DNA of 10,020 nt from an uncultured Cytophagales bacterium (GTDB lineage: Bacteria > Bacteroidota > Bacteroidia > Cytophagales > Bernardetiaceae): assembly GCA_964537755.1 (NCBI GenBank), contig CAZIAQ010000002.1, forward strand, positions 171,567 through 181,586. Direction: 5' to 3'. Both the position numbers and the translations under genes were made by a program. The notes under the pieces are model-generated. The model saw nothing but the letters and a program-made list of their open reading frames with translations, was not told the DNA's origin and searched no databases. Shown here piece after piece: positions 1-10,020 of the stretch (positions are counted from its first letter, which is position 1; each line of letters begins with the position of its first letter).

Positions 1-4
1 TTTT

Positions 5-1861
5 TTATCGCCGAATCAAAGTTACGGTGTTGCGGATGTTGTAGGTGCGCCCGATCTGATCGGTGGCCCGCAACTGAAAAAAATAAACACCTGCTGGCAA
101 GGCTTCTCCGTTGTTGCGGGTGCCATCCCAGCGCGTTTCTAGGTTGTCGCTGTAAAAAATGGGATTGCCGAGGGCATTAAAGATGCGTAGTTCGTAGGTC
201 TCGATGAAGCGTCCTACGCCGCCGAAGGTGTCGTTGAGTCCGTCGCCGTTGGGCGTAAAGGCATCGGCGATGAGCATCCTGGAGGGCAGACGCACCAACA
301 AGCTGTTGGAGGCATACGCAAAGCCGGTTTGGCTGCCCACGGCCACGACTTGAAAGCGCAACACCTGCCGGCTCTGATCGGCGATCTGCTCACCAAAGCG
401 AAAACTACTCACCGGAATCGAATCAAGTACATTTCTCTCTTCGTCCAACTTGAGCAGGTAGTAGGTCAGCGGTTCAAAAGACCCCTGATAGGCAGACCAC
501 CGAAGATCAAAACGCAGCGAATCCGTCGTTACCTGCAAGCGGATCGGACATACGGCAGCACTAAAAGTGGACTGGTTGCCACAAAAATCCTGATAGCCTA
601 CCTGATAGCAAAAGACTTGTGCGTTGGGGTTGGCCCCAAAGTCGATGTATGCCGCTTTGTCGTTGCCGGTGAGGGTGTCGATACCGACGGAATCGCGGCG
701 GGTGAAGCGCATCCGGTTAAAGAGTGAATCGAGGAGGCTACCCCAGGTAAGTTCGATTTGGTTGGCGCGATTGACCGTTACGCGGAGGGAGTCCGGTGGG
801 CGTAGGCTGCGGGTGAGTTGGGCATCGGCACAGACCTCCTGCGAAACCGACTGCCGTCCGCCGGTGAGCGTGGCCGTGATGCGATAACAGTATCGCCTGC
901 GGCAACGCACGTCGCCATCCACGGCGGTTGTGGTGCGGGGGTCGCGGAGCGTGATGAAGTCATTGCCGTCTTTGGTGATTTGGTAACCCTCAAACTGGGT
1001 GCTATCCAGGGGCTGGGCCGTCCATTGGAGACCGAGGTTGCCGTTCCCGACGGTGAGGCGGGCGTAGGTGGTACGTATGGGCTGATCGCTGGTACGGCCA
1101 CCGGTGCAAAGGTTGGTTTGACTGATGCGGTAGCTGTAGCTGCGGTTGGGGAGGTCTAGTCCATCCAGGATCAGGGTCTCTGTTCCGATGGGGAGGTCTT
1201 GCAGGACAACAAAAGCCCCGTTGTCGGTTTGTTGCTCGAGTTGGTAGTCTGCTACGGCTGGGGTTTGGGAGAGGGTCAGTTGTAGGCGTTGGTCATCCAG
1301 GACTTCGAGGCGGTCGATGGTGATGGTGGCTGGGTTGGGTTGCGGGGCAAAAACGGTATCGGTGGAGGGGCAGTTGGGGAGCGTACCCTGTACTCGGATG
1401 TTGCGTAGCTGGGTATCGGGATAGTAGTGGATGAGGGTATCGGTGGCGTTGAGGGTGGCTCGGTTGCCATCGCCGAGGTCGATGGTGTAGGTATCTCGGG
1501 TGGTGTCGGTCAGGATCAAGAGCAGCCCCTGGTCTGGGCAAGGCAGCAGATCAAAGGCAATCGGTTGAGGTTCCCTGACGACGATGAGGTTTTCTTTGCG
1601 TAGCGAATCCCCGCCCGCCCCCGAACCTACGTACTGCGTGATGGGGTATGTGCCGGCCTGGGTGTAAGTAAATGTCGTTTGGGTAACCTTGTTGCCGTTG
1701 CCGTAGTCGTAGAGGATATTGCCCGCCGCTGCCCCCGAGCAATCAATGACTTGCACCGTCAAAGGAGCGCATCCAGTCGTGATATTGACATCAAAACAAG
1801 CCTCCTGACCCATCAAGGGGTAAGCAATAATCAGACTAAGCCAAAAAAGTATCCGCATCAA
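5..1861 (-). CDS. Secreted cell-surface protein with a T9SS type-B (gliding-motility-associated) C-terminal sorting domain and an N-terminal PKD-like domain
   Basis: 618 aa ORF. The N-terminus MMRILFWLSLIIAYPLMGQ looks like a signal peptide. The following stretch GCAPLTVQV...YDYGNGN...AGTYPITQYV fits a PKD-like fold. The C-terminus ...LIADAFTPNGDGLNDTF...RIFNALGNPIFYSDN...WDGTRNNGEALPAGVYFFQL matches the TIGR04131-type T9SS type-B C-terminal domain consensus. The stop is TAA at 5-7 on the minus strand. Confidence 0.8.
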   Translation of the reverse strand: MMRILFWLSLIIAYPLMGQEACFDVNITTGCAPLTVQVIDCSGAAAGNILYDYGNGNKVTQTTFTYTQAGTYPITQYVGSGAGGDSLRKENLIVVREPQPIAFDLLPCPDQGLLLILTDTTRDTYTIDLGDGNRATLNATDTLIHYYPDTQLRNIRVQGTLPNCPSTDTVFAPQPNPATITIDRLEVLDDQRLQLTLSQTPAVADYQLEQQTDNGAFVVLQDLPIGTETLILDGLDLPNRSYSYRISQTNLCTGGRTSDQPIRTTYARLTVGNGNLGLQWTAQPLDSTQFEGYQITKDGNDFITLRDPRTTTAVDGDVRCRRRYCYRITATLTGGRQSVSQEVCADAQLTRSLRPPDSLRVTVNRANQIELTWGSLLDSLFNRMRFTRRDSVGIDTLTGNDKAAYIDFGANPNAQVFCYQVGYQDFCGNQSTFSAAVCPIRLQVTTDSLRFDLRWSAYQGSFEPLTYYLLKLDEERNVLDSIPVSSFRFGEQIADQSRQVLRFQVVAVGSQTGFAYASNSLLVRLPSRMLIADAFTPNGDGLNDTFGGVGRFIETYELRIFNALGNPIFYSDNLETRWDGTRNNGEALPAGVYFFQLRATDQIGRTYNIRNTVTLIRR

Positions 1862-1868
1862 GGAGCCA

Positions 1869-2510
1869 TTAAAACAAAAACGCCATCACGAAATACAAAA
1901 ACAGTACCACCCAAAGCCCATCCATGAAGTGCCAGTAGAGCGTCATCAAGGTTAGCTTCATTTTTTCGTGAGGGTTGGTTACGGCAATCAACACTTTTAC
2001 CGGATCGTGGCACTTTTGATGGATGCTATATGCCTGCACCCCCACAAAAGCCAAGCCTCCCAGGAGGTGCAAGACGTGTAGCCCCGAGACCAAATAGAGA
2101 TACGTTGTAGAGTTTTGGCTTGCCCAAGCCAGCCCAGCGGCCTGCAACTCATACCAACCCACCACTTGACAAACCGAAAAACCAATACCCAAGCCCAAAG
2201 TAATCAGGAGATAACGCCGCATCTGCAAAAAATCATCTTCATAAAACGACAACTTCGCTTGATGAATCGTTAGGCTGCTCATCAGGAGCAAACACGTGCT
2301 GATGACAAAGCCCGTCGGAAAGCGAAACCGCGCCAAGACCTCCTCCTGAATTTCATAAAAACGAAATGAAAATAACAAAAACAAAAACATGGCTGAAATG
2401 CCAATCATGCCCACGTAGAGCATCACCACATAGGGATGTTGTTTTTCGATGTGTTGGAGGGCATTGAGCGGCCGACGACGCACAGGCTGGGTATCTTTTT
2501 TGGCGGACAT
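1869..2510 (-). CDS. Heme-copper oxidase subunit III family membrane protein (cytochrome c oxidase subunit III / NorE-like)
   Basis: 213 aa, polytopic and hydrophobic. The C-terminal motif LYWHFMDGLWVVLFLYF matches the conserved YWHFVDVVWLFLF signature of cox subunit III. No subunit I or II gene is adjacent in the window. Confidence 0.65.
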   Translation of the reverse strand: MSAKKDTQPVRRRPLNALQHIEKQHPYVVMLYVGMIGISAMFLFLLFSFRFYEIQEEVLARFRFPTGFVISTCLLLMSSLTIHQAKLSFYEDDFLQMRRYLLITLGLGIGFSVCQVVGWYELQAAGLAWASQNSTTYLYLVSGLHVLHLLGGLAFVGVQAYSIHQKCHDPVKVLIAVTNPHEKMKLTLMTLYWHFMDGLWVVLFLYFVMAFLF

Positions 2511-2672
2511 AAACGCAAAGGGCTAGGCGGTGAATACAATGGATTACGGTCAAGGGATTGGGAAAGATACAAAAAATACGGCAGTCAAAAAACTTTTTCG
2601 GGTTTTATATCTTTTTTCTAATCCATTATTTGCCTTGATCCGTTACCATTATGAATCATCTGTATAAAGACA

Positions 2673-3347
2673 ATGTTAGATTATCTCTTCTATAAGTTCA
2701 AGGAAAAAATGGGCATGGATACCGATAACGAGCGGGCAGAGCGTATCGTGGAGCGATCGGTAGGTTGGTCGTTGGGGGCCGGCTTGATTCCGATCCCACT
2801 GGCCGATATGGTAGCCGTTACGGCGATCCAAATAGATATGGTACATGAGTTGTGTAAAATCTATGGCGTTGATTTTCGTCGTCGCAACCTAGAATCCTGG
2901 CTCAATACACTGGCTGGCAGTGCGTTGCCTAAGTTGGGATCACAGGCAATCAAGATGATTCCGGGCGTGGGTGCGGTCGTGGGCGGGGTCAGTATGGCGA
3001 TCCTTTCGGGGGCTTCTACCTACGCGACGGGGCGTGTTTTTGTAACGCATTTTGAGAAAGGCGGCACTTTGGAGGACTTCGATGCCGAAGCCGTCAAGAG
3101 CTTTTATCAGCAGGAGTTTGAGAAGGGCAAGCAGTTTGCCCGACAGATGCAGGACGAGTTTGTCAAGCGGGGCAAGGCTGCCCAGGATGAGTTTTCTGAG
3201 GCCGACGAAGTAGAGGTAGAAGTACAACCCACCGCCGCCAAAGACCCCCTGGATCGCCTCAACGAACTGATGGAACTCCGCCAGGCAGGGACAATCTCCG
3301 AAGAAGAATTTCAGCAGCTCAAACGCCGCCTCTTTGAAAATTTGTAA
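2673..3347 (+). CDS. DUF697-domain (YcjF-like) membrane protein with a C-terminal SHOCT domain
   Basis: The stretch LGAGLIPIPLADMVAVTAIQIDMVHELCKIYG matches the DUF697 core (IPIPGAD...YG). An acidic linker follows. The C-terminus LNELMELRQAGTISEEEFQQLKRRL fits the SHOCT short C-terminal domain. The true start may instead be the in-frame ATG at 2710 or 2716. Confidence 0.55.
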   Translation: MLDYLFYKFKEKMGMDTDNERAERIVERSVGWSLGAGLIPIPLADMVAVTAIQIDMVHELCKIYGVDFRRRNLESWLNTLAGSALPKLGSQAIKMIPGVGAVVGGVSMAILSGASTYATGRVFVTHFEKGGTLEDFDAEAVKSFYQQEFEKGKQFARQMQDEFVKRGKAAQDEFSEADEVEVEVQPTAAKDPLDRLNELMELRQAGTISEEEFQQLKRRLFENL

Positions 3348-3357
3348 TTTTGCTTTC

Positions 3358-4014
3358 ATGACGCATTCCACCATCCGAGCAGATAACCTTGACTTTTACC
3401 GCAAAATGGAACTCCAAAAGTTCCATGAACTGGCACAACTGACGGGCTTTGATACCCTCCCTGACCTGCAAGTGATCTTCCCTGATTTGGTGGACACCCA
3501 AAGCATCGCCGAGCTAGGGGCAGGCTATGGGCGTTGTGTCCTGGGGCTGCTCGAGATGGGCTACGCCGGAGAAATATTTGCCGTCGATCGTATCCCCCAT
3601 CTATTGCAACTGATCGAAGAACAAACTACTCACCCCCCCGTAAGCCCGATCCAACAAGACATCCGAGACCTACAACTGCCCACAGCGGTCGATGCTGTCT
3701 TGTGGCTCTGGTCAGGCATACTCGAACAAACTCCCGAGGATCAAATGCTTTGCCTCCATCGCATCTACTCCCAACTCCACCCACAAGGCAAGGCATACAT
3801 CGACGCACCCCGCGATCAAATCAAATACGTCGGCAAAAAGATAGACCGAAAATACATCCGCGTCGAAACCGAGTGGGGAACCCTGGAGGGCTATATGCCC
3901 TATCCCGAAGATATGGCTCGGATGTCTGAGGCGGCCGGCTTCTCCTCCCTCGAGCAACGCCCTTATAGCTCTGCTACGGGACTCGAGCGGGAGATGTACA
4001 TCCTGACCAAGTGA
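3358..4014 (+). CDS. Class I SAM-dependent methyltransferase
   Basis: Motif I ELGAGYGRCVLGLLEMGY is a GxGxG SAM-binding loop, followed by AVDRI and AVDAVLWLWSGILE (motif II/III-like). I prefer the ATG at 3358 over the TTG at 3334 used by the ORF track. The gene starts 10 bp after the upstream stop. Confidence 0.6.
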   Translation: MTHSTIRADNLDFYRKMELQKFHELAQLTGFDTLPDLQVIFPDLVDTQSIAELGAGYGRCVLGLLEMGYAGEIFAVDRIPHLLQLIEEQTTHPPVSPIQQDIRDLQLPTAVDAVLWLWSGILEQTPEDQMLCLHRIYSQLHPQGKAYIDAPRDQIKYVGKKIDRKYIRVETEWGTLEGYMPYPEDMARMSEAAGFSSLEQRPYSSATGLEREMYILTK

Positions 4015-5165
4015 AAACATCGCCCCCTATGCGCCCCTTGCTTCGCTTGCTTTTGCATCCCCTGCTCTTCCTCCTGACCTTCATTGCTACGACATTTGCG
4101 GGGGCAGAGTGGATATGGGGGCGGCCTTTTTTTTGGGTTTCACCTGCCCTGACGTGGGCGCACTTTTGGGATGGGCTACATTACTCGATCCCTTTTTTGG
4201 GCATCCTGACCGTACATGAGTTTGGGCATTACTTTGTGGCGCAATACCACCGGCTGCGGGTCAGCTTGCCGTACTACATTCCGCTTTGGTTGGGCTTTTT
4301 ACCACTTTTTGCGGGTGCGCCTTCCATCGGGACAATGGGCGCGTTTATCCGTATCAGGAGCCGGATATGGTCTCGGAAGGTGTATTTTGATGTCGGGATT
4401 GCGGGGCCACTAGCGGGCTTTGTGGTAGCATTGGGTGTGTTGTGGTACGGATTTACTTTTTTGCCGCCCGCCGAGCATATCTTCGAGATTCATCCCGAGT
4501 ATGCCCAGTATGGTCTGGCTTATGCCGATCACGTGTATCAGGATGCCCCCGAGGGTGGCGTTCGGCTGGGCACAAATCTGCTTTTTGAGGCGTTCAAATA
4601 TTGGGTCGCAGATCCGGCATTGCTCCCCAATGATTTCGAGATCATGCACTACCCGTATTTGCTGGCCGGTTATCTGGCTTTGTTTTTTACGGCCCTCAAC
4701 CTACTACCCATCGGCCAACTCGACGGCGGGCATGTCCTTTACGGGCTGGTGGGCTACCGCTGGCATCAGCGTATTGCACGGCTGTTTTTCTTTGTCTTTT
4801 TGGGCTATGCGGGATTGGGGCTGTTTTCGGTATCCGATGTATGGGAATCTCCGACGGGCTTTATCTTGTATGTGGGCTATCTGTACTGGGTATGGGCGCG
4901 TGAGTTTCGGCACTGGCAGGCGGCTTTGGTGGTGGCTCTGGTGCTGGTTTTGTGCCAATGGGGTATTGCGGCTTTGTTTCCAGGCATTGAGGGCTACCAT
5001 GCCTGGCTGTTGTTTGGTTTTTTGCTGGGGCGTGTGGTGGGTATCTCTCATCCGGGGGCAGAGGAGTCTGTTCCGCTTAGCCCGATCAGGAAGGCGTTGG
5101 GTGTGCTGGCTCTGGTAGTCTTTGTGCTTTGCTTTACGCCCCAGCCGCTGCTCATGGTGGAATAA
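4011..5165 (+). CDS. M50 family (site-2 protease-like) integral membrane zinc metalloprotease
   Basis: It has the HExxH zinc motif in TVHEFGHYFVAQYH and the LDGG motif in NLLPIGQLDGGHVLYGL, plus multiple TM helices. A GTG start at 4011 overlaps the upstream TGA (GTGA), which suggests translational coupling. An alternative in-frame ATG lies at 4029. Confidence 0.8.
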   Translation: MKTSPPMRPLLRLLLHPLLFLLTFIATTFAGAEWIWGRPFFWVSPALTWAHFWDGLHYSIPFLGILTVHEFGHYFVAQYHRLRVSLPYYIPLWLGFLPLFAGAPSIGTMGAFIRIRSRIWSRKVYFDVGIAGPLAGFVVALGVLWYGFTFLPPAEHIFEIHPEYAQYGLAYADHVYQDAPEGGVRLGTNLLFEAFKYWVADPALLPNDFEIMHYPYLLAGYLALFFTALNLLPIGQLDGGHVLYGLVGYRWHQRIARLFFFVFLGYAGLGLFSVSDVWESPTGFILYVGYLYWVWAREFRHWQAALVVALVLVLCQWGIAALFPGIEGYHAWLLFGFLLGRVVGISHPGAEESVPLSPIRKALGVLALVVFVLCFTPQPLLMVE

Positions 5166-5170
5166 CCAAA

Positions 5171-5220
5171 CCGCCAAAGCGGCCTACAGACTGTCTTTGG
5201 GGTAAGTCATATTTTTTTTG
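5171..5220 (+). terminator. Possible structured 3' region or weak terminator after the M50 gene
   Basis: CCGCcaaaGCGG is a short stem-loop at 5171-5182. CCAAAG (5174-5179) and CTTTGG (5195-5200) form an outer inverted repeat. It encloses the ACAGaCTGT palindrome (5186-5194), and a T8 run follows at 5212-5219. The geometry is not that of a canonical intrinsic terminator. Confidence 0.2.
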
Positions 5221-5256
5221 TACTTTCGCTTAAACCATTTCTGAAACAATCATGCC

Positions 5257-5469
5257 ATGCAAACAAACGTAGGAAAAATAGACCGACTGATCCGCTACGC
5301 CGTAGCCCTTATCTTGGTGGTCTTGTACGCCAGTGGAGTCGTTGCCGGAACCCTAGGCTGGGTTGTCTTGGTTGGGGGCATTGCCCTGGCCGCCACGGCG
5401 ACGGTTCGCTTTTGTGGGCTATACACCCTGATTGGGGTCAATACCTGCCCGCTCAAAGATCGCCCTTGA
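5257..5469 (+). CDS. DUF2892 (YgaP-like) small inner-membrane protein
   Basis: 70 aa. KIDRLIRYAVALILVV...GWVVLVGGIALAATATVRFCGLYTLIGVNTCP matches the DUF2892 pattern of two TM helices with a conserved C-terminal CPLY..G..TC. Confidence 0.55.
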   Translation: MQTNVGKIDRLIRYAVALILVVLYASGVVAGTLGWVVLVGGIALAATATVRFCGLYTLIGVNTCPLKDRP

Positions 5470-5827
5470 GTTGTTGGAGTTCTTCTTTGAGGCGTATGAT
5501 CTCCTGGCGGCAGTGAATCTCCTGACGTAGGTACGCGATCTGTAAGGCTTCGTAGTGCTGGCGCAAGGTTTCGCGTTCGGAAGCGGCAGGTGTATCATCT
5601 ATGGGGGCATCGGCTTTGTAGTCCCAGAATAAGAGATGGTCGATGCTCACCTGAAAGTATCCCGCCAAACGAATCAAGATGGGCAGGGGCGGTAGGCTTC
5701 TTTGGCTCTCATAAGCCGTGATGGTGTTGCGCTTGAGGTCGAGTATCTGGGCCAGCTGATCCTGGGTTAGGTCGTGTTCCTGGCGCAGCCAACGCAGGTT
5801 ATCTGCCAAATGCAAGGTGCTTTCCAT
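5453..5827 (-). CDS. XRE-family helix-turn-helix transcriptional regulator with a C-terminal coiled coil
   Basis: LRWLRQEHDLTQDQLAQILDLKRNTITAYESQRSLPPLPILIRLAGYFQVSIDHLLF is a Cro/C1-type HTH. The C-terminal heptad-rich stretch LRQHYEALQIAYLRQEI...IIRLKEELQQLKGDL looks like a coiled coil. It starts 5 bp downstream of the SIR2-like gene, so the two are a likely operon. Confidence 0.7.
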   Translation of the reverse strand: MESTLHLADNLRWLRQEHDLTQDQLAQILDLKRNTITAYESQRSLPPLPILIRLAGYFQVSIDHLLFWDYKADAPIDDTPAASERETLRQHYEALQIAYLRQEIHCRQEIIRLKEELQQLKGDL

Positions 5828-5832
5828 GGTGG

Positions 5833-6939
5833 CTATAGCTGCTGTTCTTCAAGTATTTCCTGGAGGGCTTCCCCGAGGCTAAGGACATCTTGTTTGATGC
5901 GGTTGAGTTGGCGTTCGGATTCGTCCTCGTCGATGACCCCATTGGTGATCTTTCGCTGGAGGCGGTTGTAGCGGCTCATCAGCAGGGTGAGCGTCGTGAG
6001 GAGTTCCTCCTCCTGGGGCAGGGGAGCTAGGTAGCTTTCGATTTTGAGCAAAGCCGCCTTCACTTCGTCTTTTCGGATGTATCCCTGGATGATTTCCCAG
6101 GGCGTTTGTACGGTATCGCTCGTCGAGAGTGGGCGGAGCATCCCGCGTTCCTGACAGCGGTCGTAGAGGGTCTGAACAAAATCATCCATGCTTAGGTCAA
6201 TGAAATCAATCCGAAAGTGATCCATACAAAAGTTGAGCGTCTCGACCGAATCCTGGCTATAAGAAGCGTAGCGCAAGAAGTTTCCCGTATGCAAACTCAA
6301 CAAACGCAAGAGCAACTTAACGTACCATTTATCGAACTTAAAGCCCAAAAAAATAAAGTTTTTGGCACTTTGGAGTTGGCTCTCCAGCCCGCGTGGTAGC
6401 TTCCGATCCCCCAGGATGGCGAACAAAAACTCGAAGAGGTCTTCGTGGGTAAAGATCAGCGATTCATCATCCTCAATAGCACCAAAGAGATTGTAGATCA
6501 GGGGATAATCTTGCGTAGGACGTTCGATCGCTTGGGGGTTCTCGTACTTGCGGTAGTAGTCGAAGCGATGGGGCAAGTTGTACTGCTCAAAAGACTGACG
6601 CAGCATCAAGTCCGGCGAAACAGAGATACACAGATGGAAAGGAATTTGGAGAATTTGCTCAAAAAGCGGCGAGGGACTATGCCGAGCATAAAACTGCTGA
6701 ATATCAAAAACGGCCCTCGTTTTGGCCAAAGGGTCGCGAAAGAAAAAAAACTCATCGTCGTTGTAATAACGTACCTTTGCCTGGTTGCTTAGGTCGAGGC
6801 TTTCCAGGAGCGACTGATAAAGCGATAAGCCCTCGGCATTACGCGCCACCTCAGGGCCTAGCATCAACACACAACGCTCGGTACGGATCGTTTCTACAAT
6901 AAAATCCCAGTTTACTTGATCGGGTGGCTTAACGGGCAT
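5833..6939 (-). CDS. Divergent SIR2-like (SIR2_2 / DHS-like NAD-binding Rossmann fold) protein with a C-terminal alpha-helical extension
   Basis: 368 aa. By eye the order of elements matches SIR2_2. There is an N-terminal Gly-loop-like CVLMLGPEVARNAEG. PSPLFEQILQIPFHLCISVSPDLMLRQSF sits where SIR2 has iiTTNYDxllE. PLIYNLFGAIEDDESLIFTHEDLFEFL sits where SIR2 has KLHGS...vlTeeDY. NFIFLGFKFDKWYVKLLLRLL sits where SIR2 has lfiGYSlsD. The catalytic Asn and His positions appear to be S/P and F. The C-terminal roughly 90 aa are helical: LTLLMSRYNRLQRKITNGVIDEDESERQLNRIKQDVLSLGEAL. Confidence 0.5.
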   Translation of the reverse strand: MPVKPPDQVNWDFIVETIRTERCVLMLGPEVARNAEGLSLYQSLLESLDLSNQAKVRYYNDDEFFFFRDPLAKTRAVFDIQQFYARHSPSPLFEQILQIPFHLCISVSPDLMLRQSFEQYNLPHRFDYYRKYENPQAIERPTQDYPLIYNLFGAIEDDESLIFTHEDLFEFLFAILGDRKLPRGLESQLQSAKNFIFLGFKFDKWYVKLLLRLLSLHTGNFLRYASYSQDSVETLNFCMDHFRIDFIDLSMDDFVQTLYDRCQERGMLRPLSTSDTVQTPWEIIQGYIRKDEVKAALLKIESYLAPLPQEEELLTTLTLLMSRYNRLQRKITNGVIDEDESERQLNRIKQDVLSLGEALQEILEEQQL

Positions 6940-7002
6940 ACATGATAATTTGAGGCAAGATAGCGAAAAAAAAAATACGAACCATCAAGCAACTTTTTGC
7001 TC

Positions 7003-7019
7003 TACAAAGCCTCTTTGTA
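7003..7019. promoter_or_regulatory. Perfect 7-bp inverted repeat TACAAAG-cct-CTTTGTA in the divergent intergenic region; candidate operator
   Basis: Read directly from the sequence. It sits 28 bp upstream of the DUF4249 start and about 64 bp upstream of the divergent SIR2-like start. An A10 run lies at 6966-6975. Confidence 0.3.
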
Positions 7020-7046
7020 AGAAGAGTAATCAAAACAAGAAAACAG

Positions 7047-7859
7047 ATGCGCATTTATTTTGTATGGATTTTGATGATCGGTACCCTGCTCACCGCTTGC
7101 GAACAAGTGATCGACTTACCCCTCCGCAGCATGGAGGAACCGCTCGTTGTCATACAAGGGCAGGTCGTGGATACGGTGGGCTATTCCTGGGTCATCCTTA
7201 CCCAATCTCTTGATTTCTACAACCCTACGCAAGCCCCCCGCATCTCGGGGGCCCAGGTGAGTATAAGCGACGATACGGGCAACGAAATGATCTTTCGGGA
7301 GGACAGCCCGGGCTTTTACGTCCCCACAGACCCCGCCTTCAAGGGAGAGGTCGGGCGCACGTATAGCCTTTCGGTACAAGTCCAGGAAGAATTTTTTAGG
7401 GCTAGCTCCCAACTCCTACCCGTTACCCAAATCGACTCCCTGACGGTGCGCTATGTAGCCGGCCGGCCGTTCCGAGACGACGGGTATTACCTGTACTTTT
7501 TTGCCAAAGAACCCCCCAACGAAAAGAACTTCTATCGCTGGAGGGTCTATCTCAATGACAGCCTATTTGATGGCTTCGATGATATTTTGCTCGCCGATGA
7601 TCGCTTTGTCCAGGACAACATCGAAAACCTAGAACTTCCCTACGCCTTCGATCTGGGCGATACGGTGGCTTTGGAGCAGTACTCGATCAATGAAGATGTC
7701 TTCGATTATTATAGCGATCTGTTGAGCCTGGCGGGCAACGACGGTGGTTTGTTTTCGCCGCCACCCGTCAATCCACGCACCAACATCAGCAATGGCGGTT
7801 TGGGTATTTTTAGTGCTTCCTCGCTGATACGTGTCGTACAGATCATTGAAGATGAATAA
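7047..7859 (+). CDS. DUF4249-family lipoprotein
   Basis: The signal peptide carries a lipobox (MIGTLLTAC). The C-terminal NISNGGLGIFSASS resembles the DUF4249 C-terminal N..NG.G.FGA motif. The family is typical of Bacteroidota. Confidence 0.55.
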   Translation: MRIYFVWILMIGTLLTACEQVIDLPLRSMEEPLVVIQGQVVDTVGYSWVILTQSLDFYNPTQAPRISGAQVSISDDTGNEMIFREDSPGFYVPTDPAFKGEVGRTYSLSVQVQEEFFRASSQLLPVTQIDSLTVRYVAGRPFRDDGYYLYFFAKEPPNEKNFYRWRVYLNDSLFDGFDDILLADDRFVQDNIENLELPYAFDLGDTVALEQYSINEDVFDYYSDLLSLAGNDGGLFSPPPVNPRTNISNGGLGIFSASSLIRVVQIIEDE

Positions 7860-7860
7860 C

Positions 7861-8403
7861 TTATAGGTTAGAGAATGCCGTTACGCGGGCTTGTATCCTC
7901 GGGCGTTCTCCGAGCGGCACCAAAACGATGATGTCCGTTGAGATGGTCTCGCCATCGCGGAGGATAAAACCTGCCTGGACACGCTCGGTGCGCGTGATCG
8001 TTTTTCCTTCGGCGTTGGTATCTTGCCGCTCAAAGGGGACAATAAACTGGTTGGCACGTACTTCGGCACTTTTGGAGGTCATGCGACGACCCGTAGCATT
8101 GATGCAATCAAAGACCCCAAAAACGGATGGATCCATGATACTCCCCCCAAAAGCTCCCTGAAAGCCCGTTCCGGTCAAGACAATTTTTGGGCAACCGCTT
8201 TGGTTAGTCAGATAAACCGTAATTTCGTACCGTGAAAATTCTTCTTTGCCCGCGCTTTGGGTGCGTTCATTGGTTACCGAAAAGCCCACCGACAAACCAT
8301 CCTGATTGGATGATTGGTTCTCTTCCAGGGGGATCACCTGTTGGGCAAGTCCTTGAAAACAAATCCAAAAGAAGGCCATGGCAAATACACACAACTTTTT
8401 CAT
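7861..8403 (-). CDS. Secreted hypothetical protein with a signal peptide
   Basis: 180 aa with signal peptide MKKLCVFAMAFFWICFQGLAQQ and no motif I recognise. It is convergent with the DUF4249 gene, and the two stops are 1 bp apart. Confidence 0.45.
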   Translation of the reverse strand: MKKLCVFAMAFFWICFQGLAQQVIPLEENQSSNQDGLSVGFSVTNERTQSAGKEEFSRYEITVYLTNQSGCPKIVLTGTGFQGAFGGSIMDPSVFGVFDCINATGRRMTSKSAEVRANQFIVPFERQDTNAEGKTITRTERVQAGFILRDGETISTDIIVLVPLGERPRIQARVTAFSNL

Positions 8404-8414
8404 AGGTCTTTTTA

Positions 8415-8435
8415 TTTTTTTTCCCTCAAAAAAAA
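8415..8435. promoter_or_regulatory. T8-CCCTC-A8 palindrome in a 47-bp divergent promoter region
   Basis: tttttttt ccctc aaaaaaaa sits between the divergent starts at 8403 (minus) and 8451 (plus). It could form a hairpin, or it could be an A-tract/UP-like element shared by both promoters. Confidence 0.2.
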
Positions 8436-8450
8436 CAATTATCGTTCCAA

Positions 8451-8999
8451 ATGAAAATCGCCATCATCTCTGGCAGCACCCGTCCAGGTCGCAACAGCCA
8501 CCGCCTAGCACTGGCTCTCGAGCAGTATCTGAAAAACCAAGCCGATACATCGGTACAACTGATCGACTTAGCCGCCCTTGACCTACCTCCTTTCGTAGAA
8601 CGCCTGCGGTTACTCGAAGACCCATCAGCGGAACTGCTCGCCGCCAGCACAGACCTAAAAAATGCCGATGCCGTGATTTTGGTCAGCCCAGAGTACAACG
8701 GTAGCTTCTCTTCTGCCCTCAAGGGATTCGTTGATCGTATGGGCAAGGACGAGCTAGGCGGAAAACCCATCGGCGTTGCCACAGCATCGACGGGGGCGAT
8801 GGGCGGTATGCGGGCAGCCCTGGCACTCCAACAGCTCATCCTGGCCGTGCAGGCCTATCCCCAACCCCAGATGCTCCTCTGTGGGCAGATCACCCAACAG
8901 ATCGACGAAACGGGGGCTTTAATCAACCCTGATTTTCTTTCTAAAATCGAAACCTTTGCGCAGGCACTCCTTAGCTTTGCCCAAAAAATGAAAGCCTAA
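8451..8999 (+). CDS. NADPH-dependent FMN reductase family oxidoreductase (flavodoxin-like fold)
   Basis: MKIAIISGSTRPGRNSHRLALAL...ADAVILVSPEYNGSFSSALKGFVDRM is the typical FMN_red (PF03358) N-terminal SGS.R..S.N motif plus the P-EYN core. Confidence 0.8.
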   Translation: MKIAIISGSTRPGRNSHRLALALEQYLKNQADTSVQLIDLAALDLPPFVERLRLLEDPSAELLAASTDLKNADAVILVSPEYNGSFSSALKGFVDRMGKDELGGKPIGVATASTGAMGGMRAALALQQLILAVQAYPQPQMLLCGQITQQIDETGALINPDFLSKIETFAQALLSFAQKMKA

Positions 9000-9652
9000 C
9001 GCGAGAGCATCGGGCGCGTTGCTACCTGTACCAATACCTCCCGCTTGACCTCATGCGCGCCCTCAAAAGGAATCACGCGCACCTGCGGAAAGACCCGTTG
9101 CAACAGAGACATCTGCCGCTCGAGCGTCTCGGGGGTATAAAATGGGTCTTCGCTGCCCACAAAGAAGTTTACTTCGATCTCGTCCGTGTTCAGGTAGCGG
9201 ACATCCTGCGGTGTGATCTCCTCGGGGAAGCCACCCGCCCAAAAAAACAACCGCTCAAACGGCACCTGATGCGCCAGGGCCCAACGGATCACGGCTGCCG
9301 CCCCCTGCGAGAAGCCAAAAAGCGTAAGACCTGCTGTATCAGGGGCTTCTGCGGTCTCGGCCGCAAAGACGGCGTTGAGGTAAGTGTACATATTTTGGAG
9401 GCTCATCTCCCGCTCCTCCCGCGTGATCCAGGAGGCACCCACGTGCTGGTACTTGTCGTCGAGATAAAAACGGGACAAGCCCTGGGGCGCAATCACGAAG
9501 TTTTCCTGTGGCTCCAGGGCATCAAAGCGACGGACAAAATGCCGCGCCAGTTGGCCATAGCCATGACAGGCCATCCAGATATGCCGCGTGGATGGGGTCA
9601 GGGCATGATACGTGGTATAAGGTGCCTGGATGGTAAGCGAAACGTGTTTCAT
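8996..9652 (-). CDS. Alpha/beta hydrolase, phospholipase/carboxylesterase family
   Basis: 218 aa. The nucleophile elbow is GFSQGA, with a likely Asp at GSEDPF and His at FEGAHEV completing a Ser-Asp-His triad. Size and motif order fit PF02230-type esterases. Its stop overlaps the FMN-reductase stop (convergent). Confidence 0.7.
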   Translation of the reverse strand: MKHVSLTIQAPYTTYHALTPSTRHIWMACHGYGQLARHFVRRFDALEPQENFVIAPQGLSRFYLDDKYQHVGASWITREEREMSLQNMYTYLNAVFAAETAEAPDTAGLTLFGFSQGAAAVIRWALAHQVPFERLFFWAGGFPEEITPQDVRYLNTDEIEVNFFVGSEDPFYTPETLERQMSLLQRVFPQVRVIPFEGAHEVKREVLVQVATRPMLSR

Positions 9653-9763
9653 CAGCCAAAGATAAGCAATATGGAGCGGTTTTGTGCAAGGGCAGGGGCG
9701 TTTTTGGTTTGCTGTAGTTTTTTAGTATGTTTGCTTTGGGGTGAGAGGTAAATCAAAAAAAAT

Positions 9764-10020
9764 ATGTACATCAGCAAAGTTAAAATCCAAAACTATCGTA
9801 ATTTCTCAAGTTTAGAACTTGATTTACAACCTTTTACACTTATTATTGGTGAAAATAATGTTGGTAAAACTAACTTGCTTAATGCGATTGGGTTGATACT
9901 TAGTCCTGATATTTCCTTTTTCCAAAAAAGAGTGTTGGAAACAGATGACTTTCATTATCAGAATGTTTTGCTTTTTAAAAAGCAAGTAATTACTGAAAAT
10001 GATTTTTCTAAACTCAACTT
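9764..10020 (+). CDS. Partial (N-terminal 85 aa, runs off window) AAA_15/OLD-family-like ATPase. The P-loop N-terminus resembles GajA, AriA and OLD defence ATPases.
   Basis: Translation: MYISKVKIQNYRNFSSLELDLQPFTLIIGENNVGKTNLLNAIGLILSPDISFFQKRVLETDDFHYQN... The pattern I.I.NFR.F....i.f....liiG.NN.GKTNlL.Ai, with Walker A GENNVGKT, is the hallmark N-terminus of OLD/AAA_15/AAA_21 ATPases. The gene is about 28% GC, against about 57% in the rest of the window. The ORF track missed it because there is no stop inside the window. Confidence 0.6.
   Translation, partial: MYISKVKIQNYRNFSSLELDLQPFTLIIGENNVGKTNLLNAIGLILSPDISFFQKRVLETDDFHYQNVLLFKKQVITENDFSKLN

Follow-up and report, generated by a model that had tools for sequence, protein, structure and literature searches.

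A probable gajA gene start at a sharp composition boundary in an uncultured member of the Bernardetiaceae

The window, a stretch of 10,020 nucleotides from an uncultured bacterium of the Bernardetiaceae, ends inside an open reading frame which begins with the ATG at 9764 and runs without a stop through 85 codons (257 bases) to the last base. An in-frame TAA (9749–9751) lies four codons before this ATG. The translation begins MYISKVKIQNYRNFSSLELDLQPFTLIIGENNVGKTNLLNAIGLILSPDISFF, the whole 85-codon reading being MYISKVKIQNYRNFSSLELDLQPFTLIIGENNVGKTNLLNAIGLILSPDISFFQKRVLETDDFHYQNVLLFKKQVITENDFSKLN, and residues 29–36 (GENNVGKT, bases 9848–9871) form a Walker A motif of the GxxxxGK[ST] pattern expected of GajA. 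This gene start and the features of the window that bear upon it are collected in Table 1.

Table 1. Features at and upstream of the composition boundary in the window.
Feature	Coordinates	Strand	Size	Basis
Probable gajA 5' end, ATPase domain of a class 2 OLD nuclease	9764..10020	+	first 85 codons	translation, Pfam, PADLOC
Intergenic spacer, divergent esterase gene to gajA; contains the GC step	9653..9763		111 bp	
Candidate Bacteroidota-type promoter, TTTG-N19-TATGTTTG (-33 / -7 elements)	9703..9733	+		pattern match
Alpha/beta hydrolase, Abhydrolase_2-type esterase	8996..9652	-	218 aa	ORF, Pfam PF02230
SIR2_2 + EAD11 (effector-associated domain 11) protein	5833..6939	-	368 aa	domain match
HTH_3 protein, directly after the SIR2_2 + EAD11 gene	5453..5827	-	124 aa	

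The 85-residue fragment was screened against Pfam, PADLOC and the PDB. It contains an AAA_15 domain (65.3 bits, cut-off 32.1, E 1e-17). The original prediction had described a P-loop N-terminus of the OLD/AAA_15 type at this position, and the domain, the Walker A motif and the agreement of the translation with the motif that it quoted all bear this out; it had also placed the effector part of the protein beyond the window, and the frame does run open to the window end. Among the PADLOC models the GajA model PDLC00077 scored highest (105.5 bits, E 7e-31, model positions 1–80) and was followed by further GajA models, while the top models of other kinds were those of AriA (66.3 bits), Old (54), PtuA (47) and AbiLi (44). 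The GajA model thus outranks those of the other OLD/AAA_15 families. The top PDB matches are the GajA entries of Bacillus cereus (8wy4, 8jq9, 8j4t and 8sm3; E ~2e-5), in which the Walker A sequence GMNDIGKT aligns with GENNVGKT of the fragment. From the candidates first listed for this N-terminus (GajA, AriA, PtuA and the ATPases of retrons and abortive-infection systems), GajA is singled out by PADLOC, by the PDB matches and by the gajB gene found in 76/76 assessable relatives.

Housekeeping ATPases of the RecF, SMC or ABC type were considered as well. Both SMC_N (31.5 bits, cut-off 40) and ABC_tran (15.7 bits, cut-off 25) fall under their curated cut-offs on the fragment, while AAA_15 lies above its own, and a housekeeping protein of this kind is therefore excluded; RecF appears among the PDB matches only at E 3e-3.

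Like the members of the PDLC00077 GajA subfamily, the window gene specifies an N-terminal ABC-type ATPase with a Walker A motif, and no difference is visible over the 13% of the protein that lies in the window. The GajA-GajB system of B. cereus VD045 (8SM3, 8JQ9, 8WY4) aligns with residues 3–66, Walker A included, and its operon order, gajA then gajB, is also that of the relatives of the window gene. B. cereus GajA is nevertheless a distant homolog, with E 2e-5 to the fragment and E 2.4e-11 (46 bits) to the full-length protein of the closest complete relative, that of Emticicia (L009). It has 578 amino acids as against ~635–640 in the relatives of the window gene, and its host belongs to the Bacillota whereas that of the window belongs to the Bacteroidota.

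Relatives were collected by scanning a single genome of each species for the N-terminal motifs, which gave 80 loci with 50–89% identity to the fragment. At 73/80 of these an open reading frame of 599–670 amino acids starts at the match. Four loci fall outside the 76 at which the downstream gene could be assessed: two run off the contig end, the locus L066 has a 100-residue frame whose end is ~300 bp from the contig end, and L062 is a relic. At all 76 assessable loci a GajB-like UvrD helicase lies downstream, at a distance of 5–92 nt from gajA in 73 cases and of 1.1–2.0 kb in the three (L024, L079 and L081) in which gajA is disrupted.

The closest complete relative is found in Emticicia sp. SJ17W-69 (L009, protein P0130), with 88–89% identity over the fragment. 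Its GajA (8001–9905) has 634 amino acids and possesses AAA_15 and OLD-like_TOPRIM (63.7 bits) domains. PDLC00077 is matched end to end (616 positions) with 613 bits by this protein and with 757 bits by that of Thermoflexibacter ruber DSM 9560 (L011). The Toprim Glu and DxD of the Emticicia protein align with the residues E379 and D432/D434 of B. cereus GajA, given as catalytic in PMC10781630. Its gajB follows gajA after four bases and codes for a protein of 517 amino acids with UvrD-helicase and UvrD_C domains (GajB PDLC00118, 330 bits). A full-length search gave a subclade of proteins with 634–642 amino acids, whose identity to the window is 81–89% over the 85 residues. The highest amino acid identity to the fragment, 92%, is that of the protein P0001 of a metagenome-assembled genome (MAG; L001), which is thus the closest relative. 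At the four loci with 81–92% identity (L001, L009, L090 and L092) the gene pair is in each case gajA-gajB, with gajB immediately after gajA on the two subclade contigs inspected (L090 and L092), and gajB is also present in L004 and L005-8.

Taken together, the segment 9764–10020 very probably holds the 5' end of gajA, which comes first in a compact, AT-rich Gabija (GajA-GajB) operon acquired horizontally by a member of the Bernardetiaceae (Cytophagales, Bacteroidota) with ~53% GC. The composition break, the start of the reading frame, the Walker A N-terminus and the affinity to GajA are all seen in the window. By analogy with the relatives, the rest of gajA would bring the gene to ~635–640 codons and would specify a dimerisation insert and a C-terminal Toprim nuclease domain; gajB, predicted to code for a UvrD-like SF1 helicase of ~515–550 amino acids, would follow within a few bases. 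The system would then be an ordinary new copy of a common and well-known two-gene anti-phage system, and the value of the assignment lies mostly in annotation.

In the composition profile of the window, GC is 0.528 over bases 1–9652, and 257-bp windows within this part have a mean of 0.528 (sd 0.051, minimum 0.377). The value for 9764–10020 is 0.284 (z = -4.8), below all of them. In 30-bp bins GC is 0.50 at 9680–9709, 0.33 at 9710–9739 and 0.20–0.37 onward, the step being sharp (~30–50 bases) and located at ~9710, ~50 bp 5' of the gajA ATG. Codon usage changes with it, GC3 being 0.26 in the gajA fragment as against 0.54–0.69 for every one of the 11 genes upstream. Both an abrupt fall in GC and a switch in codon usage had been predicted here; the switch is confirmed, as is the fall itself (from 0.58 in the neighbouring esterase gene to 0.28), but its position is ~9710, in the spacer, and not ~9760.

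The esterase gene adjacent to the spacer (GC3 0.69) is the last gene of host composition ahead of the boundary. Its product is 100% identical to a protein (P0010) annotated as alpha/beta hydrolase of "MAG: Bernardetiaceae bacterium". This gene is no part of the Gabija system and serves as the host-side landmark of the junction.

The last 15 bases 5' of the gajA ATG are A-rich (AAATCAAAAAAAATATG) and have no Shine-Dalgarno sequence; leaders of this kind are usual in the Bacteroidota. The spacer also contains the only match to TTTG-N17-21-TAnnTTTG, the consensus of Bacteroides and Flavobacterium promoters, on both strands of the window, where 0.14 matches are expected; at least one match was found in 25/200 shuffled windows. 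The motif ends 30 bp short of the gajA ATG and, from its pattern and position, is a candidate for the gajA promoter. A scan of the window for sigma-70 promoters and terminators gave no signal above chance. A perfect 12-nt inverted repeat (TGTACATATTTT / AAAATATGTACA) is present at 9385–9396 and 9759–9770, its arms 362 nt apart, the first inside the esterase gene and the second over the gajA start codon; it is probably a chance match.

The flanks of the cassette differ from one relative to the next. In the MAG with the closest protein (L001) a Na/Ala symporter gene lies upstream and a PemK toxin pair downstream. In Emticicia (L009) the neighbours are a cell-surface Ig_7 protein and Reg_prop/OmpA, in T. 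ruber (L011) an FAA hydrolase and threonyl-tRNA synthetase, and on an ENA metagenome contig (L090) DUF433 and SnoaL_3 / AAA_14 / PDDEXK_2. On a Logan contig (L092, 1640–10256) gajAB belongs to a defence cluster, with an extra UvrD-type helicase, DarT and an ADP-ribosylglycohydrolase (DarG-like, as in DarT-DarG) immediately upstream and DUF3800 downstream. The element thus occupies non-homologous sites, and the different flanks in each member of the subclade indicate a mobile cassette. At the DNA level the window resembles L001 (84–85%) from the gajA start codon onward and not before it, and no conserved DNA upstream of gajA is common to the window and its relatives.

In L001, L009 and L011 the AT-rich segment consists of gajA-gajB alone (~3.4–3.8 kb), after which the composition of the flanks resumes; on this pattern host-like composition would return after ~3.5 kb in the window genome too. 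Over 68 loci (among L009–L088) the mean GC of the cassette is 0.325 as against 0.374 for the flanks. The cassette is below its flanks in 59/68, its GC lies at 0.27–0.36 in most of the 68 across hosts, and the correlation with flank GC is weak (r = 0.40). Marked examples are Geobacillus thermocatenulatus (0.30 vs 0.48), Christiangramia crocea (0.28 vs 0.45) and Exiguobacterium (0.30 vs 0.47). With a contrast of 0.24 to its host, the window exceeds the maximum of these 68 relatives (0.18) and ranks first among the 69 loci compared; this is its one unusual feature beside the PDLC00077 subfamily. The window cassette is thereby a clean example of an AT-rich composition kept in a much GC-richer host, with a difference of 24 points.

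The deviating composition and codon usage, the varied sites in relatives and the similarity that starts at the ATG together support the horizontal acquisition which had been proposed for this gene, and the import of a compact cassette with a persistent composition of its own is well supported. The proposal of a defence island, taken as a cluster of several systems, goes further than the data, the unit in L009 and L011 being two genes between housekeeping genes and only L092 lying beside DarTG; the "island" is probably a two-gene cassette. A search for the tRNA genes, integrase and direct repeats that might flank such an island failed to bring any to light: neither the window nor 8 related loci contain a tRNA gene, the window has no integrase gene, direct repeats are absent from the visible junction, and the visible edge thus bears none of these marks of mobility (tRNA, integrase or transposase, repeats). 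Neither PLSDB plasmids nor IMG/VR contigs yielded a relative with at least 60% identity. As to an empty site, no relative came out of a metagenome scan in which the esterase was the query, and the nearest esterase homolog (62%, L089) has no Gabija system adjoining, but that locus is not syntenic.

The SIR2_2 + EAD11 and HTH_3 genes are the only other conflict-type genes in the window. They lie 2.8 kb upstream of gajA, with four ordinary genes between. PADLOC gave nothing significant for the pair, only a weak match to LmuA (17.5 bits), and its domain architecture looks like that of a biological-conflict system. Since their GC3 is host-like (0.62–0.65), these two genes are not part of the AT-rich import.

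Against a working system stands the possibility that the window holds a decayed Gabija remnant, in the form of an N-terminal relic or of a pseudogene with a frameshift. Decay does occur among the relatives. In the nearest of them, L001 (10001–13502), gajA is frameshifted at a T6GA5 run (10282–10292) and gajB carries an in-frame stop and a frameshift, which may be either real decay or sequencing error in the MAG. In a Lishizhenia MAG (L062, 4587–4844) all that is left of GajA is an N-terminal stretch of ~64–85 amino acids, and both the Toprim domain and gajB are missing. In a Polyangiaceae MAG (L024, 8001–11287) gajA is split by an insert of ~1.4 kb; the gene is also interrupted in L079 and L081, and L004 and L005-8 are fragmented. 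With the system of L001 degraded and only a relic left in L062, the intactness of gajA in the window genome is not guaranteed, the visible portion being 85 of ~640 codons. These codons are, however, all open, and identity to L001 is higher for amino acids (92%) than for nucleotides (84%), the pattern expected of a constrained coding region. The start codon also lies in a proper context, a promoter-like motif is present, and the frames at the 73 genome loci given above and all ten of the subclade proteins listed (P0130–P0139) are full length or nearly so. A remnant is accordingly regarded as unlikely, and by analogy with the complete relatives gajA would be intact.

The proteins P0130–P0139 (e.g. 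L009:8001–9905 and L001:10001–11922) differ in how far their two halves are conserved. The ATPase part (alignment columns 1–400) is ~85–100% identical, whereas the Toprim/C-terminal part occurs in two variants which are ~50–56% identical to each other and 74–87% identical within each. The pattern points to recombination at the level of domains within the nuclease half of GajA in this Cytophagales subclade, and such mosaicism, along with the frequent decay, fits a picture of defence genes as modular cargo with a fast turnover. Because the close relatives are mosaic, with only the ATPase part ~90% identical throughout, the unseen part of the window gene could be a third module. A gajA in which the conserved ATPase N-terminus is joined to a noncanonical, hitherto undescribed C-terminal nuclease module or partner gene is very improbable; were it true, the exceptional GC contrast would mean that the gene had arrived very recently from an AT-rich donor not yet sampled.

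A different ATPase of the AAA_15/OLD type would be a stand-alone class 1 OLD protein, PARIS AriA, Septu PtuA, a retron-associated OLD protein or AbiL. The N-terminal P-loop fold is common to all of these, as is reflected in the PADLOC scores of AriA, Old, PtuA and AbiLi. Class 1 OLD (Old of phage P2; OLD of Thermus scotoductus, 6P74) shares with GajA the ATPase and Toprim domains, and 6p74 matches the fragment at E 3e-5. The ATPases of PARIS (AriA), Septu (PtuA) and retrons Ec78-Ec83 have the AAA_15-type P-loop N-terminus in common with the fragment, and retron and PtuA ATPases are found among its PDB matches (E ~5e-4, ranking below GajA). The mosaic C-terminal half of the close relatives also means that modules are swapped in this clade. 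On the other side, the GajA model is ahead by ~39 bits on only 78 aligned residues, and at every one of the 76 assessable loci, all with at least 50% N-terminal identity, the downstream gene is a UvrD-type helicase (gajB), with AriB, PtuB, reverse transcriptase and msDNA partners absent. The relatives with 81–92% identity all combine ATPase and Toprim domains with GajB. Class 1 OLD proteins are described in PMC10568477 as single genes without a helicase partner, an adjacent UvrD/PcrA/Rep-like helicase being what separates class 2; such a lone gene contrasts with the GajB found beside gajA in all close relatives of the window. That the fragment belongs to one of these other systems is therefore held to be extremely unlikely.

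A chimeric join of GC-rich and AT-rich organisms in the assembly has next to no probability: the source is indeed a MAG, its GC contrast is above that of all 68 relatives, and the junction is without a second assembly because an independent short-read Logan contig of 3,973 bp (L002/L003) stops at ~9268, inside the esterase gene and before the boundary, but the step falls within a normal divergent spacer, after which a complete gene start follows at once, no repeat able to cause a misjoin is present at the junction, and AT-rich gajAB lies between GC-richer housekeeping genes in isolates too (T. ruber DSM 9560, G. thermocatenulatus, C. crocea and Exiguobacterium).

For the Gabija operon that is very probably present here, a mode of action can be proposed from the B. 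cereus system. GajA and GajB would form a 4:4 complex, with a GajA tetramer binding four GajB, which is the assembly reported in PMC10781630 and PMC10822852. The Toprim domain of GajA would nick or cleave DNA, and at normal NTP levels nucleotide binding to the ATPase domain would hold GajA inactive; PMC8136825 reports that DNA nicking by GajA is suppressed at physiological NTP concentrations through the ATPase domain. The visible Walker A lobe would, by this analogy, belong to the nucleotide-sensing domain. Phage replication would lower the nucleotide pools or expose DNA ends, and GajA would be released. GajB would then sense the DNA ends produced by GajA and hydrolyse (d)ATP/(d)GTP, by which the response would be reinforced and the infection aborted; the sensing of GajA-made termini by GajB, and cleavage and nucleotide depletion that reinforce each other, are described in bioRxiv 10.1101/2023.05.02.539174. 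On the phage side, Gad1 is reported to block DNA binding (PMC10781630), and a preprint (PMC12407980) links the choice of target by Gabija to phage proteins which antagonise RecBCD. In the accounts of PMC8136825 and PMC10781630, phage protection and nucleotide-regulated nicking are known for B. cereus and a few other systems only. For the window subfamily this mechanism is extrapolated, because it is distant from the sole biochemically studied GajA.

Truncation as a trait of the clade was also considered and rejected. A protein search with the 85-residue query returned solely fragments of 57–148 amino acids, whereas the genome and full-length searches gave mostly intact proteins of ~600–670 amino acids, and the excess of fragments is therefore put down to a bias of the short query. 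In such a word-indexed protein search, which could give a false impression of truncated genes, short queries appear to favour short targets despite the existence of hundreds of full-length relatives.
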